A stretch of 64,000 nt of DNA from an uncultured Bacillales bacterium (GTDB lineage: Bacteria; Bacillota_I; Bacilli_A; RF39; UBA660): positions 12,429 through 76,428 of the forward strand of contig CANSPQ010000001.1 of assembly GCA_947648915.1 (NCBI GenBank). Reading direction: 5' to 3'. The first letter of the stretch is position 1; the number at the start of each line of letters is the position of its first letter. Shown in pieces: positions 58,060-64,000 of this stretch. The notes beneath the pieces were generated by a model that was not told the DNA's origin, searched no databases, and saw only the letters and a list, made by a program, of their open reading frames with translations. A program made the position numbers and the translations under genes.

Positions 58060-59727
58060 TTACCTTTTTTTCTTTTTCGAGATAGATTCAATGGTTCCAC
58101 GTTCTATTTTGATTACTTGTGAAACAAGATTGATACATTCTTCACTCGCTGAAAAAATGAGAATTGTCCTTTTTCCATATAGTTTATCAAGCGCATGTTT
58201 AATACTATCTTTCTCAGTTTTTGATAATGCGATAGGAAATTCGTACAAAATGATAATCTCACTATTCGTTAACAATGTTCGGGCAAGACCAACCAAATAT
58301 TTTTTTCCCTCTGGTAAATTGGTGATATCCGTACGATATTTTTTGGGTAAGGTAAGTATATAATCATCTAGCTCTAACATTTTACATACTTCTTTTATCT
58401 TTTGTTTATCACGACATACCATTTCTAAATTCTTCATAATACTTCCATGGAAGAAATAAGGCCTTGTTGTTAAATAATTCACATTGGTTTTATGCACTTT
58501 TTCTGTATAATCCCAGATATTAATACCATCTACATAAATATCTCCCCGATCCTGTTTCATCTCTCTTCTGAGTAAATTGAAAATCGTACGTTTTCCACAA
58601 TTTCTTTGTCCTAAAAATAAGACCGTTTCATTTTCAGGAATATGGAAGGAGATATCTTTAATACGACTATTATGCTCTTCCTGACTGGTACTATTATAAC
58701 TTACATTCTTAAAGTCAATATTACCTAAAATATCATCGGTTTTATTGTTTCCAAACTCCAGTAATTCTTTCTCTGTAAAATTTAAAATAATCGATACACG
58801 ATTGGTAGAAATATTTGCTTTTTTAATTTCTGTTAAAATGGTCATGAAGTCATTGGCTACTTCAATTCCTGAACTTAAATAAGGAACAATTAAGAAATAT
58901 AACGTTAAAGATACTTGCCCTTTTGATACCATATAAACAATAAAGATGGTCATCGCATAGATTACAAATTGATAAAAGACATGAAAATATTGATCTAAGA
59001 AACAATAGTCTATATTCCACTGATTTTTCTCTTTGATATATCCGTTACAACTATTTAAAAATTTTCGTTTGACTTGTCCTGTTACATTTAAATCCTTCAT
59101 AATATCTTTGGAATCCATTACTTCAGAAAAACTTTCATATTGTACATCGTGAGCTTCGGAAATTCGCTTATTCGATTTGGCAATCCGATTATTAATCCAA
59201 TTGAGGATAAAAAAATTCAAAATGTCCACTAGAATAATGACACAAGCAACTGGAATATTAATTAAGAAAATAGCGCCGATTGTTAAGATAAGTCGCAATA
59301 ATCTTGCAGTTCGGGTTGCAAGTAAATCCGCAAAATTTGCCACATTATATACATCATTATGAATAATATTAATCAATTTTTCTTTCGAATTTTTTTCAAA
59401 GTTCACATTCTTGGCATTGGCGATTTTATCAAAGATTTTCTCTTCCAAATTCATATAAGTATGTCTGAGTAACTTATAATAAATACGATAATTGATATCC
59501 CAAAACCCTTTACGTAACACAATAAATAAAAAACCAATTGTTAAAAATAAATATACCAAATTATATTTTCCGAGGTTAATATTGGTAATCACATTGGCCG
59601 CAAAAATAGGTTCAATAATACTACAAATAGATGCCCCTAAAACTGTGATAAAGGCAATAAAAAAATATTTCTTGCTGGGTTTGGCAACACGATACCAATT
59701 TAAAAACATGCGAATATTTTCTCTCAT
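58060..59727 (-). CDS. ABC exporter-like half-transporter with degenerate nucleotide-binding motifs
   Basis: 555 aa. TMD then NBD. Walker A is altered (GQRNCGKRT). No LSGGQ signature is present (NLPEGKKYLVGLARTLL). The Walker B Asp is lost (IIILYEF). Paralogous to 43401..45119. Confidence 0.5.
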   Translation of the reverse strand: MRENIRMFLNWYRVAKPSKKYFFIAFITVLGASICSIIEPIFAANVITNINLGKYNLVYLFLTIGFLFIVLRKGFWDINYRIYYKLLRHTYMNLEEKIFDKIANAKNVNFEKNSKEKLINIIHNDVYNVANFADLLATRTARLLRLILTIGAIFLINIPVACVIILVDILNFFILNWINNRIAKSNKRISEAHDVQYESFSEVMDSKDIMKDLNVTGQVKRKFLNSCNGYIKEKNQWNIDYCFLDQYFHVFYQFVIYAMTIFIVYMVSKGQVSLTLYFLIVPYLSSGIEVANDFMTILTEIKKANISTNRVSIILNFTEKELLEFGNNKTDDILGNIDFKNVSYNSTSQEEHNSRIKDISFHIPENETVLFLGQRNCGKRTIFNLLRREMKQDRGDIYVDGINIWDYTEKVHKTNVNYLTTRPYFFHGSIMKNLEMVCRDKQKIKEVCKMLELDDYILTLPKKYRTDITNLPEGKKYLVGLARTLLTNSEIIILYEFPIALSKTEKDSIKHALDKLYGKRTILIFSASEECINLVSQVIKIERGTIESISKKKKR

Positions 59728-59828
59728 TAAACCACTCCTATAATCAGTATAGCATAACTTGATTCTATTTTTTGGATAGAAATTCTAAACTTGACACTTG
59801 TATACAAAAAATACGGAAATCATCCGTA

Positions 59829-61307
59829 TCATGCTTTTCTTTCATATAAGAAATAGGTCATCATTCGTGTTTGATACCTTTGGGTATAAGAATCAATCAG
59901 TTTATAATCTTTAGAGAAAGTTGGTAACCCTACTGGATTTTCCTTTTGAATCACGACAAAATGAGGTTTCTTCTTTCGAATATACGATTTTTGTTCATCC
60001 ATCATTTCTGGATATCTTTCATAATCAATGTTATTTTTCATGAAATAGTAATATTCTGGAATAATACCAGTTGTTGTATAGAAACCACCATCCAAAAAGC
60101 CATAATTGAGTAATGTTTTATCCTCACTTTTTTCTATGATTTCTGCAAATCGATATTGTGCATAGTCCTCTTTCTTCCATTTCACCATTCTCGTATTTCC
60201 ACATATGGTATAAAGTGCCAGAAAACTAAAGAAAATACACCAAGCATTAGATATGTTCCATTCCTGTTTTGATGTATAAGATAATAGTTCCAAAAATCCG
60301 ATTAATATAAAAGGTGTCAAAACAAATGGATAGTAATGAAAACTAGTCCCACCAATATATATAAAGATTCCAGTTGTTAACATACAGGTAAATAAAGTTA
60401 AATTAGCGCCCTTTTTACCCCACATATCCCCTTTTTGAAATAATAGGAAAAATCCAATTACAATTCCAAAAAAGGTTGGTAAACTTCCAAATAAATTGTG
60501 AAATAATAATGAGAATGTTTCCACAATTTTATCTATAAAAGTCCCTGCACTAGAATAAGCATTCATATTGACTACAAAGTAAACATTCCATAAGTCACCT
60601 AAAGCATTATGGATTCCAAAATAAATCATCCAAGGAATTGTTGCGAGTAACATACCAAATAGATAAATAAAACAATTTTGAAATGCTACTTTGTATTGTT
60701 TGTTATAACATTGCAGTATAAATACGCACATCATCCAACCAAACCAGAATCCTAATAAGGTATACTTCATCCATAAGATACAACCTGCGAGTATACCTGT
60801 TAATAAAACTGTCTTTCTAGAAATCATAACATCTTTATCTTTTAAATAAGCAATCAAATGATAAAAAGAAATCATAAAAAGAGATAAACTAAATTCTTCT
60901 ACACTACCACCATGACTAAAAGAGCCTAGGGTTACAATACACAATGTAAAAATCGGTATTACAAAATATGCCTTTTTTGCTTCAAAAAATAAAGTAATAA
61001 TTTTATAAGTGTAGTAAAGGAATATAGAAAAGGAGATTACTTCTAGTAGAAATACACCTATAAAACTTTTGTAACTAATAAGGGAGCCAATTCCATAGAT
61101 AAGATATAAAAGAGGGCCTTTTTGTTCAAATAATGACTGATAAGGAACAACCCCTCTTACCATTCCCTTTCCTACTGTAAAAAAGGCATTGGCGTCTACC
61201 CAGTCATTGATACGATATAAGAATGAATTTTTACTACAAACCATTAGAAATAAAAAGGCAATTCCAAGACAATATAAATAAGGTTTTATCCATTTTTTAT
61301 TTTTCAT
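59829..61307 (-). CDS. GT-C-fold membrane glycosyltransferase (ArnT/PMT/YkcB-like)
   Basis: About 492 aa, polytopic. N-terminal loop carries DWVDANAFFTVGKGMVRGVVPY (Asp-containing first loop). Likely start MKNKKW. Confidence 0.45.
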   Translation of the reverse strand: MKNKKWIKPYLYCLGIAFLFLMVCSKNSFLYRINDWVDANAFFTVGKGMVRGVVPYQSLFEQKGPLLYLIYGIGSLISYKSFIGVFLLEVISFSIFLYYTYKIITLFFEAKKAYFVIPIFTLCIVTLGSFSHGGSVEEFSLSLFMISFYHLIAYLKDKDVMISRKTVLLTGILAGCILWMKYTLLGFWFGWMMCVFILQCYNKQYKVAFQNCFIYLFGMLLATIPWMIYFGIHNALGDLWNVYFVVNMNAYSSAGTFIDKIVETFSLLFHNLFGSLPTFFGIVIGFFLLFQKGDMWGKKGANLTLFTCMLTTGIFIYIGGTSFHYYPFVLTPFILIGFLELLSYTSKQEWNISNAWCIFFSFLALYTICGNTRMVKWKKEDYAQYRFAEIIEKSEDKTLLNYGFLDGGFYTTTGIIPEYYYFMKNNIDYERYPEMMDEQKSYIRKKKPHFVVIQKENPVGLPTFSKDYKLIDSYTQRYQTRMMTYFLYERKA

Positions 61308-61444
61308 ACACTTCACCACTTATACTTATTTTACCATGTTTTTGATAAAATAAATGACGAATTTGTAATATATTTATCATATCTGTAAGGCAAATGTATA
61401 CAATTTTAGATGTTTAGTGATTGTATTTTACGATACTTAAATGT

Positions 61445-62116
61445 TCATTTGGTTTTTTTACTATAATAAGCTTTTGTTTTTTCAAATAACTCTGGAGCAA
61501 ATTCATTTAGTAATTGCCAATTATGAATCAAATTTAGAATAAAGCTTCTTTCATAATTTTCCAACATATATTTCCCCATTAAAAAGGCAGTCGCATATTT
61601 ATTTGATGCATTCGGAAAATTTGATTTCAACTCCTCATAAGTACAAGTGATAGAAGTTCCACTATAATCTTGTCCTGACAGATTGGTTGCTAGTGCTTCT
61701 GAAAACCATATATGTCCATGTGAATTATTCTCTCCTAATGATTCATGATGACATATATGTACAAATTCATGCAAAATACTTTTTGCCTGATCCTCTAAAG
61801 TATGATTTTTATGAGATTCCAATTTATGGCATTCTTTAAGTGCTAGTATGTTAATGTTATCATCTAGGGTATCCCCAATCATCCATTCATGGTATGTATT
61901 TCCGTTTTGTTCTAACAAAGGCATCAAATGTTCCTTATAGCCATGGATTGAATCATAGATTTTTACAACTATTTTTCTACTAAGACGTTTTAATTCAAAA
62001 AATTCCATAATATCCTTTGATTTTTGTTCTAATGTAATAATCAAATAGCGTATATTTACATCATTAGAATTATAATAAATAATAAATTGATCATTTTCAT
62101 ATCGCATTTTTATCAC
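61445..62116 (-). CDS. Putative HExxH zinc metallopeptidase (ImmA/IrrE-like?)
   Basis: 223 aa. ILHEFVHICHHE motif. Lies next to the Fic/repeat element. Confidence 0.35.
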   Translation of the reverse strand: MIKMRYENDQFIIYYNSNDVNIRYLIITLEQKSKDIMEFFELKRLSRKIVVKIYDSIHGYKEHLMPLLEQNGNTYHEWMIGDTLDDNINILALKECHKLESHKNHTLEDQAKSILHEFVHICHHESLGENNSHGHIWFSEALATNLSGQDYSGTSITCTYEELKSNFPNASNKYATAFLMGKYMLENYERSFILNLIHNWQLLNEFAPELFEKTKAYYSKKTK

Positions 62117-62321
62117 TTCCTAATACAATTATATAACTACTACTTGTTCCATCATATTATAACAAGATTGATAATTAAAATCATCACTTTTCAATAGTAA
62201 AAATTATATAAGAAAATAGCTCCTGTGTTTAGTAGAACACTTGCCCACGTTAGATTAGCAAGGAGGGAAGCAAGGGGTTGCACTAAATACAAAAAAAGAA
62301 CTTAATACCAAGTCCTTAATT

Positions 62322-62343
62322 TCTAAATGGTCGGGAAAACAGG
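62322..62343. repeat. 22-bp perfect direct repeat, copy 1 (tctaaatggtcgggaaaacagg)
   Basis: Identical to 63336..63357. Followed by a 9-bp inverted repeat (ATTTTAGTA gtt TACTAAAAT) at 62350..62372. Confidence 0.85.
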
Positions 62344-62486
62344 TCTGATTTTAGTAGTTTACTAAAATTTAAAGATACTGTTTTCCTATTGAAAATCAAT
62401 TATAAAGCAATAAATCTGTTTAAAATCGTTTAACCGAATTTAAGAATTTTGGATTTTTTAAGTGGTAAATAAGATGTAATTTATTA

Positions 62487-63167
62487 CTAAGATTTAAAAG
62501 ATTCTATTCGCTCTCTTTCATTTTTGGATAAAATTCTTAGCCAATTTGCCAAGCCTTGTACATCCTTATTTCTTAAGAATTCAAAATATTTTGTTCTTTC
62601 TTCCTTTGGAATAACAATTGGCGGAATATTATTTTTTAACAATTCAAAATTAATTAATAATCTTCCTGTTCTACCATTTCCATCCTCAAAAGGATGAATA
62701 CTTTCAAATTCTAAATGATAACTGGCAACTTTATAGAAAATATCTGTGTTTTCATCATGATTATAATTATAAACAAAATACATCATTAAATTATTAATCT
62801 TCTCTGGACTTGGGGGAATATGTTCACTTCCTCTTATCATTACTCTAACATTTCGATACCCTTTTGTATCTTTAATATCTTGATTTATTACTTCATTCAT
62901 TTGTTTAATAAAATGTTCATCTAACTCTAATTCATTTTTTTGGAGTTTATCAAATAAAATCAACATTGCCTTTTTATGATTAATTGCCTCATAGATTTCT
63001 CTCGGCTCTTTATTGTTAATTTTAAAGTTGTTATCATTGAAAAGAATAGCATAAGTTTCTGCATAGGTCAGTGTACTACCTTCAATTGCATTGGAATGAT
63101 AGGTGCTTCTGGTAATAATGTCTTCTAAGTATTCCTTATTTTCTATAATAAAATCCATTATTTTCAT
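62487..63167 (-). CDS. Fic-family (AMPylase/Doc-type) protein
   Basis: 226 aa. Fic motif HPFEDGNGRTGR. Confidence 0.75.
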   Translation of the reverse strand: MKIMDFIIENKEYLEDIITRSTYHSNAIEGSTLTYAETYAILFNDNNFKINNKEPREIYEAINHKKAMLILFDKLQKNELELDEHFIKQMNEVINQDIKDTKGYRNVRVMIRGSEHIPPSPEKINNLMMYFVYNYNHDENTDIFYKVASYHLEFESIHPFEDGNGRTGRLLINFELLKNNIPPIVIPKEERTKYFEFLRNKDVQGLANWLRILSKNERERIESFKS

Positions 63168-63335
63168 AGTCCACTTCCTTTCTAACTGTTAATAGTATAT
63201 CATATATATGATATAAATTTGAACAAAATATTATCCACCACTTATTTTTTATAAACATTTTTAAATATAACTAAGCGATTATAAATATCCTTAAACCTAT
63301 TGATTCAAAAGAAAAACAGGATTAACCTGTTATAA

Positions 63336-63357
63336 TCTAAATGGTCGGGAAAACAGG
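63336..63357. repeat. 22-bp perfect direct repeat, copy 2
   Basis: Identical to 62322..62343. Lies 1014 bp downstream of copy 1, so the two copies flank the Fic gene. Confidence 0.85.
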
Positions 63358-63387
63358 ACGAACTAGAAAGAAATTGATTACTACATA

Positions 63388-63413
63388 ATCCACAAAAAAC
63401 CGTGGATTTTTTC
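63388..63413 (+). terminator. Rho-independent terminator (ATCCAC-loop-GTGGAT + TTTTTT)
   Basis: Reads cataATCCACaaaaaaccGTGGATtttttccg. Lies immediately after repeat copy 2 and upstream of the RepA_N-like gene. Confidence 0.5.
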
Positions 63414-63499
63414 CGTTTCATTACGGATGATTCCTTTTTGAAACACTTAATTTTAGAAAATTTAAGTGCTGAATAAGTGCTAGAAAAGGAGGAATGTTC

Positions 63500-64000
63500 A
63501 TGTCAGTTTTTAGAATTAACAAAGATAAAAATTATACAGTTATGAGTAACTATCATTTACGTGATAAAAATATATCTTATAAAGCAAAAGGACTACTATC
63601 ATTTATGTTAAGTTTACCTGATGACTGGGATTATTCTATGAATGGATTATGTAAGGTAAGTAAAGAAAACATTAGAGCCATTCGCTCTACTCTTCATGAA
63701 TTAGAAGCATATGGCTATTTGATGAGAGAACGTATCCAAAATGAAAAAGGACAATTTGGTTACAACTATTCTATTTATGAATATCCAACTATCCAAGTAC
63801 CGCATACCCATAATCCGCATACGGATAATGCGAATACCCAAGATGACCTACAAATAAATACAAATGAAATAAATACGAAAAAACAAATAGATAAAGTAGA
63901 TAAACACTTTCATCCCATTACAATGGAATTAATTGTTAAGAAATATTTAAAAGAAGATGATTTAGAACTTTATAAATATGATAACTTCATCAATGAAATG
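63500..64000 (+). CDS. RepA_N-like replication initiator / replisome organiser of a Firmicutes mobile element (3'-truncated by window edge)
   Basis: AAAGGAGGAATGTTC RBS. MSVFRINKDKNYTVMSNYHLRDKNISYKAKGLLSFMLSLPDDWDYSMNGLCKVSKENIRAIRSTLHELEAYGYLMRER resembles the RepA_N (firmicute plasmid/ICE replication initiator) N-domain. The frame stays open to position 64000. Confidence 0.5.
   Translation, partial: MSVFRINKDKNYTVMSNYHLRDKNISYKAKGLLSFMLSLPDDWDYSMNGLCKVSKENIRAIRSTLHELEAYGYLMRERIQNEKGQFGYNYSIYEYPTIQVPHTHNPHTDNANTQDDLQINTNEINTKKQIDKVDKHFHPITMELIVKKYLKEDDLELYKYDNFINEM

Follow-up and report, generated by a model that had tools for sequence, protein, structure and literature searches.

Organization of the locus

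The window analyzed here is a 64,000-nucleotide (64-kb) stretch of a contig from an uncultured Bacillales bacterium. At its right-hand end, a gene for a Fic-domain protein lies between two perfect direct repeats and is followed by the 5′ part of a replication-initiator gene. The features of this region are listed below, with loci from related genomes designated by L numbers.

62228-62321, minus strand: native trailer of a tRNA operon (trailer A), 96.8% identical to L032 and L059
62296-62317 (hairpin) and 62289-62295 (T run), minus strand: folded tRNA-operon terminator within trailer A
62322-62343, plus strand: repeat copy 1, an orphan att site where the Fic cassette ends on its tRNA-distal side; positions 62328-62343 correspond, as reverse complement, to the final 16 nt of tRNA-Pro(UGG), and 62322-62327 to trailer
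62334-62386: compound hairpin in which 9 nt of the core (GGAAAACAG) pair with CTGTTTTCC, with a nested 10-bp hairpin inside
62344-62486: tRNA-distal arm (P′) of the cassette, 88.9% identical to L092 and L097
62487-63167, minus strand: Fic-domain protein, 226 aa (PF02661, E = 9e-20)
63168-63335, minus strand: tRNA-proximal arm (P) of the cassette, holding the Fic promoter region, 91.7% identical to L092
63315-63331, minus strand: terminator-like hairpin and T run in the P arm, after the core in tRNA orientation
63336-63357, plus strand: repeat copy 2, att site common to the Fic cassette (tRNA-proximal end) and the IME (tRNA-distal end)
63358-63499, plus strand: left (tRNA-distal) IME arm, 96-98% identical in L059, L040, L054, and L097
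63387-63408 and 63412-63427: hairpins in the left IME arm
63441-63453 (inverted), 63463-63470, and 63474-63481: TTAAGTG-type repeats in the left IME arm
63500-64000, plus strand: 5′ part (167 codons) of a replication-initiator gene, 229 aa in relatives

Exact search recovered the 22-mer TCTAAATGGTCGGGAAAACAGG at both repeat positions on the plus strand, confirming the perfect repeat pair reported in a preliminary description of this DNA. No third copy was found in the 64-kb window with up to three mismatches allowed, and none of 100 dinucleotide-preserving shuffles matched the 22-mer (chance expectation, 0). As had also been reported, Fic is the sole credible gene between the copies, the remaining ORFs there being short and overlapping it.

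The translated Fic protein has an intact active-site motif, HPFEDGNGRTGR, conforming to the HxFx(D/E)GNGRxxR signature of the Fic/Doc family; near its N terminus lies SNAIEG, an inhibitory-helix-type motif. A full-length match to PDC-S04, a PADLOC candidate (E = 4e-59), was accompanied by a partial one to SoFic (E = 1e-32) and by a match to phrog_11900. With the single-gene Fic defence candidates SoFic and PDC-S04 the protein shares the Fic fold, the intact HxFx(D/E)GNGRxxR motif, and an N-terminal (S/T)xxxE(G/N). In contrast, the SoFic model spans 361 positions, of which only 48-220 were matched, and the window protein, known from sequence, is much shorter (226 aa). By these similarities Fic is a candidate anti-phage gene for which a defence or toxin role is plausible, and it may act in defence. 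Exact look-ups of the window Fic protein and of the ORF at 61445-62107 returned no record, and phage and plasmid BLAST searches returned nothing beyond short matches on the Fic and Rep coding sequences. The only exact match of the ABC protein was a 3-kb contig.

The preliminary description had placed an inverted repeat after each copy and a strong plus-strand terminator after copy 2. The one after copy 1 is confirmed, and it is strong: as DNA, the compound hairpin folds at -14.9 kcal/mol (z = -6.1). It is kept in L092-type and L099-type cassettes and absent in L083, where homology to the window ends at 62392. Its candidate roles are a recombination signal and a Fic 3′-end structure. The stretch after copy 2, however, folds no better than shuffled sequence (z = -0.36). 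A plus-strand hairpin followed by a T run does exist there (63387-63408), but it is modest, with a 7-bp stem that includes three G-C pairs. The same arm contains, inverted at 63441-63453, a 13-nt motif (AAATTAAGTGTTT) of the integrase-side arm of L018, followed by the related TAAGTGCT repeats at 63463-63470 and 63474-63481. These left-arm repeats are candidate arm-type integrase sites or iterons.

The repeat corresponds to the 3′ end of tRNA-Pro(UGG)

The reverse complement of the 22-mer equals the 3′-terminal 16 nt of tRNA-Pro(UGG) followed by 6 nt of trailer. On the minus strand it comprises, in order, the 3′ strand of the T stem (CCTGT), the 3′ strand of the acceptor stem (TTTCCCG), the discriminator base (A), CCA, and the six-base trailer TTTAGA. 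Neither ARAGORN nor Rfam detected a tRNA gene or other known RNA in the window, and a permissive Rfam scan of 62100-63500 gave chance-level matches only. Copy 1 together with its hairpin was considered as a degenerate tRNA-Pro pseudogene and rejected, its interior having no similarity to a tRNA body. The tRNA-Pro origin of the repeat had been missed in the preliminary description.

An exact scan for the 22-mer across one genome per species matched 42 stretches, all from uncultured gut Bacilli/"Tenericutes"-type MAGs. The 22-mer formed the end of an intact tRNA-Pro in 35 of the 42 loci, where this tRNA gene usually closes a Val...Phe-Arg-Pro tRNA operon. The other seven copies were orphans, followed by at least five unrelated right-hand sequences. 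Elsewhere, too, copies number one or two per locus, each at tRNA-Pro or an element junction. The sequence, which ends tRNA-Pro in most loci and is otherwise found as orphans with varied arms, is thus a tRNA-Pro att site of several element families and not a dispersed repeat. The same tRNA end is present in the unoccupied alleles L032 and L015, as expected of an att core. The preliminary description had named a dispersed genome-wide repeat, such as a REP-like element, as the competing possibility. It does not apply here, since copies sit at tRNA-Pro or element junctions; the many scattered intergenic copies typical of such a family are not seen in the 64 kb, which hold two.

One locus narrows the site further. 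The host trailer of L046 differs (...AATCAA before the core), and identity between element and site is confined there to TGGTCGGGAAAACAGG(A), so the crossover must fall within these 16-17 nt. The extra TCTAAA of the 22-mer belongs to the conserved trailer and need not be part of the recombination core. Trailer A abuts the core directly in L032 and L059, and its type of hairpin is also found after intact tRNA-Pro in L015 and at many other loci.

Allelic states of the locus

Within one species the locus is empty in L032, occupied by the Rep element alone in L059, and occupied by both the Fic cassette and the Rep element in the window. L032 is 95-97% identical to the chromosomal flank of the window and reads from trailer A through the core into the tRNA-Pro body, which makes it the unoccupied site that the preliminary description had proposed to look for in related genomes. 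L059, 97.2% identical to window 58843-61370, passes from trailer A and the core into the Rep element, without Fic. The order in the window is trailer A, core, Fic cassette, core, Rep element. Because the two alignments between L059 and the window share precisely the 22-mer, the indel is exactly 1,014 bp, i.e., the cassette plus one repeat. In a multiple alignment all sequences agree through ...ACAGG and diverge right after. Among more distant syntenic genomes, L015 is empty and L006 carries the IME only. In L035, the tRNA-adjacent arm resembles the chromosomal trailer A of the window, which a simple insertion model leaves unexplained.

The rightward element is related to MobV-type IMEs

The initiator ORF, which begins at 63500 downstream of AAAGGAGG and is cut off by the window edge, contains an HTH_36 domain (PF13730, E = 7e-9) and also matches phrog_4707 and phrog_428, "replication initiation protein." RepA_N (PF06970) was not matched at E ≤ 0.01 by the window fragment or at E ≤ 1 by a full-length 229-aa homolog. 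The earlier label of a RepA_N-like replication initiator thus holds for the type of protein but not for the family, which is HTH_36 instead.

As the window stops 501 nt into the Rep gene, the far end of the element was read from relatives. Copies of the last 665 bases of the window, 91-97% identical, are present in L028, L040, L054, L055, L059, L046-L053, and L097, and continue from the 229-aa Rep into a 412-aa Mob_Pre/MobV relaxase (PF01076, E = 5e-30). Where the initiator gene is complete, copies 94-97% identical precede this relaxase. In L059 the relaxase gene is followed by a gene whose 668-aa product matches PDC-M49A, a PADLOC candidate (E = 8e-198), small ORFs, and genes for a 70-aa HTH protein, a 490-aa protein without a family match, and a 193-aa XRE-type regulator, after which the contig ends. 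L018 and L030 carry this regulatory module at 94-96% identity; in L018 it leads into a 259-aa HExxH-type gene and a 99-aa gene in the excisionase position. Both loci encode a 368-aa tyrosine integrase composed of an arm-binding (Arm-DNA-bind_4, PF14657), a SAM-like (SAM_3, PF14659), and a catalytic domain (Phage_integrase, PF00589). Its gene is followed in both by a terminator and by TATAATCTAAA plus core, the core here completing an intact tRNA-Pro; in L018 two hairpins precede TATAATCTAAA. The resulting element of ∼9.7 kb, put together from copies 94-97% identical, is a composite of L059 joined to L018/L030, its full length being present on no single contig.

The more distant L056 and L057 show the same gene order, with contigs that break within the integrase C terminus. 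L060 is a complete 5.5-kb derivative that runs from an orphan core to tRNA-Pro/tRNA-Arg, with the cores 5,471 bp apart. Direct att repeats at one specific site delimit the element, as seen in full in L060, and the window, L059, L040, L028, and L097 share an identical distal junction. In L059, L040, and L028, the IME end of copy 2 is joined to other left flanks.

An integrase is thus present in the L018/L030 copies, 94-96% identical to the conspecific L059, and in L056 and L057, and MobV lies directly after Rep. Type IV secretion or coupling-protein families were absent from the genes scanned in L059, L056, and L018, several of which have no family match. The combination of an integrase and a canonical relaxase without a coupling-protein or type IV secretion family fits an IME as defined by Guedon et al. 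2017 (PMC5704250) and by Coluzzi et al. 2017 (PMC5357655). The element of the window itself would presumably end in the same way, in an integrase gene and tRNA-Pro. The preliminary description had taken one repeat as the attL of an ICE, phage, or plasmid-like element extending rightward, and had suggested a search on that side for an integrase, mobility genes, and a further repeat copy. An integrase and a further repeat copy are found at the far end of near-identical elements (L018, L030, and L060), and mobility genes likewise lie to the right in relatives. The boundary of a rightward element stands, while an ICE or phage gives way to a MobV-type IME.

Recurrence and origin of the Fic cassette

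At least four other genome types contain the cassette with unchanged boundaries, at identities of 84-94%. In L092, L094, and L098 it stands alone, directly after an intact tRNA-Pro, with an orphan distal core containing one mismatch; it is 91.2% identical to window 62289-63358 over 1,072 nt, and the P arm of L092 follows the intact tRNA-Pro directly. L099 and L100 likewise carry the cassette alone at tRNA-Pro, 84% identical to window 62326-63358. Homology there stops at both repeats, the distal core has two mismatches, and the outer flank is unrelated. L035 holds a fourth variant (Fic 89%; two mismatches in the distal core). The composite of the window (orphan core, Fic, core, Rep, Mob) is found again in L097, 90% identical over 1,714 nt, in an L092-type genome background. 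L054 contains a decayed version, in which a truncated Fic and a degenerate core with the start of Rep precede a fresh core and an intact IME.

Between the window and L092, identity of the non-coding cassette arms is 89-92%, on a par with the ORF. Chromosomal genes common to the window and the cassette-bearing genomes are 65% identical (75% for L083). The excess of arm identity (89-92%) over that of shared chromosomal genes (65-75%) indicates that the cassette spread horizontally, and recently relative to host divergence. In L103 and L104, a Fic of 75% protein identity lies between proS and mutS without cores, so only the closer Fic clade is cassette-borne. In L083-L090, Fic (96% identical at the amino acid level) follows tRNA-Pro with no distal repeat, and homology stops at 62392, just past the compound hairpin. 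The latter arrangement suggests that the cassette may come from capture of a gene resident beside the tRNA. Decay of a larger element and such a capture are both possible origins of the cassette. No integrase, relaxase, or transfer gene, or remnant of one, was recognizable inside the cassette. A unit flanked by perfect 22-bp repeats, with Fic as its only gene and no integration or transfer genes, has the layout of a CIME.

Tandem accretion and alternative explanations

The arrangement is best explained by tandem accretion of a CIME-type Fic cassette and a mobilizable IME at att sites formed by the 3′ end of tRNA-Pro(UGG), a reading to which a probability of about 0.85 is assigned. Directly established are the identity of the repeat, the exact boundaries of the indel, and the gene content of near-identical elements. 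By this account the tRNA-Pro(UGG) gene, encoded on the minus strand, would be located to the right of the window. The locus would read, from left to right, tRNA-operon trailer, core, the 1,014-bp integrase-less Fic cassette, core, and an IME of ∼9.7 kb carrying the HTH_36 initiator, MobV relaxase, cargo, regulators of the XRE and HExxH types, an Xis-like gene, and a tyrosine integrase that includes an arm-binding domain. A third core at the IME end would complete tRNA-Pro. The integrase is predicted to recombine the attP of the element with TGGTCGGGAAAACAGG(A), a stretch of 16-17 nt at the end of the tRNA, which would regenerate the tRNA and leave an orphan core copy on the distal side. Since each tRNA-adjacent arm brings its own terminator hairpin, the tRNA operon would still terminate; for the cassette, the hairpin at 63315-63331 of the P arm would serve this purpose after insertion. 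The Fic cassette would either have been at the site already or have arrived with the IME as a composite, the IME occupying the tRNA-proximal core. The cassette would have been moved by the IME integrase, in cis as part of a composite or in trans. Indirect signs of mobilization in cis are the recurrence of the Fic-IME composite in another genome type (L097) and a cassette identity far above the genomic background.

The right end of the element is predicted to read TCTAAATGGTCGGGAAAACAGGATTTGAACC..., i.e., an intact tRNA-Pro, followed by tRNA-Arg(ACG). A Fic circle or Fic tandem would contain ...CCTGTTATAATCTAAATGGTCGGGAAAACAGGTCTGATTTT, an IME circle the integrase-side arm ...GGCTTTATAATCTAAATGGTCGGGAAAACAGGACGAACTAG, a composite circle the integrase-side arm plus core plus TCTGATTTT, and a restored empty site trailer A plus core plus ATTTGAACC. 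No circular or excised (attP-type) junction of either unit was found among 108 loci. Two proposals of the preliminary description are borne out by the comparison, namely duplication of an att site by site-specific integration and a separate Fic-delivering event as the source of the other copy. They are supported by the empty L032, the IME-only L059, the cassette standing alone at an intact tRNA-Pro in L092 and L099, and the integrase and further repeat copy at the far end of near-identical elements.

An alternative history is that the cassette is an inert relic of an island that decayed in place, with fossil att sites, and that its presence or absence reflects homologous deletion between the repeats or vertical inheritance. 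This reading is possible though somewhat unlikely. It accommodates the lack of an integrase or transfer gene in the cassette, the one or two mismatches in the degenerate distal cores of L092, L099, and L035, the existence of decayed arrays such as L054, and the missing distal repeat of L083. However, both repeats of the window are perfect, and genomes with 65-75% identity in their shared genes have 84-94% identity in the unit, non-coding arms included. Homology moreover stops exactly at the repeats while the outer flanks differ, and the cassette is polymorphic within one species. At the opposite extreme, the 1-kb Fic unit may be a working single-gene defence cassette, moved in trans at tRNA-Pro by co-resident IME integrases or as a composite, with the conserved core-pairing hairpin acting as a recombination signal. 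Such a unit could be likened to an integron cassette whose att site would be tRNA-derived, but the proposal is tentative and rather doubtful.

For the rightward element, an improbable explanation is a PICI-like phage satellite or small prophage, in which a helper phage would bring about induction and packaging and the phage-type initiator and integrase would support these steps. Rep matches PHROG replication-initiation families, with weak nucleotide matches on phage replication genes, and an integrase, an XRE-type repressor, and a metalloprotease-like gene occur in many prophages and satellites. Against this, all close copies have a full-length MobV relaxase (PF01076) immediately after Rep, and no capsid, terminase, or packaging-related family was found among the genes scanned in L059, L056, and L018. 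The 22-mer had no match in the viral contig collection, and scans of viral contigs for Rep recovered relatives of only 46-47% identity. The element does not fit PICI-like satellites, which have an integrase, a replication module, packaging-interference genes, and no relaxase, in that it has a MobV relaxase and, among the genes scanned, no packaging-type family. A chance duplication or REP-like family unrelated to recombination would account for the bare existence of a short repeat and nothing more. Its probability is negligible, given that no copy is expected by chance, that only two occur in 64 kb, and that the sequence is the 3′ end of tRNA-Pro in 35 genomes.

Relation to known systems

Tandem accretion of CIMEs with IMEs or ICEs at the 3′ end of a target gene is known from ICESt1/ICESt3-CIME of Streptococcus thermophilus and from streptococcal IMEs (Guedon et al. 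2017, PMC5704250). According to the same review, a composite may be inherited or moved as one unit, decayed neighbors are common, and acquisition of the composite as a whole is an allowed alternative. Coluzzi et al. 2017 (PMC5357655) describe tandem accretions of IMEs and decayed elements as frequent in streptococci. By analogy, the layout of the window matches this published model of CIME-IME accretion at a target-gene end (PMC5704250 and PMC5357655), in that an att-flanked unit without integrase or transfer genes lies beside an integrase-bearing element. Unlike the published cases, the unit in the window is only ∼1 kb, holds one gene, and is kept in this form by several species; its host belongs to an uncultured lineage of gut Bacilli, and the system is known here from sequence. 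The CIME label for the Fic cassette rests on layout, no ICE or IME remnant having been found in it.

Streptococcal IMEs that combine a MobV relaxase with a tyrosine integrase, and Tyr_8 integrases that target tRNA genes, are described in the same paper (Coluzzi et al. 2017, PMC5357655). The features given there include a size of ∼10 kb, a tyrosine integrase, a canonical MobV (PF01076) without a coupling protein, a maintenance or replication gene, integration at tRNA 3′ ends, and short direct repeats, all of which are shared with the element studied here. In contrast, the initiators in that text are Rep_trans or short RepA_N, whereas the initiator here is of the phage-type HTH_36 family, and tRNA-Pro is not among the tRNA targets named in its excerpted text (PMC5357655).

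The pairing of Rep with Mob has a further parallel, the element sharing an adjacent Rep-Mob(V) gene pair as its backbone with a group of plasmids. Mobilizable plasmids of the pMV158 type in Firmicutes have an adjacent Rep-MobM/MobV backbone. Unlike them, the window-type element carries a tyrosine integrase for its own integration, and its initiator belongs to another family. The pMV158-type analogy for such IMEs is also drawn in PMC5357655.

The locus is an ordinary, well-understood arrangement that leaves unchanged the known way in which such elements work. Its value is as a clean example of tandem accretion at a tRNA gene in uncultured, reduced-genome gut Bacilli, a lineage with little described mobile-element biology. 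In that lineage, tRNA-Pro serves at least five element families as a hotspot of insertion, and candidate anti-phage genes (Fic/PDC-S04 and PDC-M49A) travel on these small elements. The finding is of use for annotation and as a starting point on the active movement of very small att-flanked cassettes; the residual novelty lies in the 1-kb single-gene unit, which is possibly an actively moved cassette.

Variability at and beside the tRNA-Pro site

Left of the repeat-bounded segment, and outside it, lies a further gene:

Window 61445-62116 (within 61371-62227), minus strand: ORF of 223 aa; HExxH-like motif; weak match to Peptidase_M78

The slot at 61371-62227 is variable as well, because the conspecific loci L032 (empty site) and L059 (integrative mobilizable element [IME] only) hold a different gene there, an MvaI/BcnI-type restriction endonuclease (PF15515, E = 1e-38). 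A gene within the IME of the more distant relative L056 is 69% identical to the window ORF (E = 2e-114), and an element remnant adjoining tRNA-Pro in L036 matches the ORF region at ~74% nucleotide identity. The slot may be what is left of an older element that has lost its att site to decay.

Between the slot and the first repeat, the native trailer of the tRNA operon contains a GC-richer motif (...GCAAGGAGGGAAGCAAGGGGTTGCAC...; within 62240-62290) just past the operon terminator. The motif is kept in L032, L059 and the distant syntenic empty site L015, is partial in the Fic cassette variant L035 and weak in L057, a distant IME relative, and matched no Rfam family.

Other elements at the tRNA-Pro end

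Three regions were identified left of the orphan core (a repeat copy lacking the tRNA body) of the Rep IME:

L028, 3087-3613
L040, 2215-2340
L054, 1440-1598

In these regions lie a truncated C-terminus of a tyrosine integrase, the integrase-side arm hairpins belonging to another copy of the IME, or both, accompanied by small collagen-repeat ORFs. The tRNA-Pro site thus also hosts tandem arrays of IMEs, as well as the products of their decay. In L091, L093 and L095, homology to the Fic cassette ends inside the tRNA-proximal core, directly after TCTAAATGGTC (~9821 in L091, equivalent to window 63346), and is followed by three Resolvase-domain genes, one encoding a 541-aa large serine recombinase, so another class of element uses the tRNA-Pro end in these loci. 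In L060 (1-6022), an orphan core at one end and tRNA-Pro at the other delimit a complete 5.5-kb relative. Its genes include an ABC transporter pair, one that is acetyltransferase-like and a truncated integrase, but no relaxase; its assembly coverage is 248x, and either its copy number or its abundance may be high.

In L092, L094 and L096 (~5436-10700 in L092), tRNA-Ala(UGC) lies ~210 nt past the solo Fic cassette; next come a tyrosine integrase of 308 aa and an inovirus-like set of genes that includes Zot. On this gene order, tRNA-Ala(UGC) looks like a second insertion hotspot adjoining that of tRNA-Pro. Fic homologs (75% identity) are also found directly 3' of the prolyl-tRNA synthetase gene in L103-L108, and an orphan tRNA-Pro core plus IME lies two genes 3' of a ProRS gene in L057 (2299-3741); this proximity may be coincidence.

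IME cargo

Cargo differs between the near-identical IME backbones of L059 and L046:

L059, 5677-7683: candidate defence ATPase PDC-M49A, 668 aa
L046, 2684-4594: ATPase, 636 aa, with weak LmuB/PtuA-like matches

This difference suggests a swappable defence-cargo slot 3' of the IME relaxase gene.
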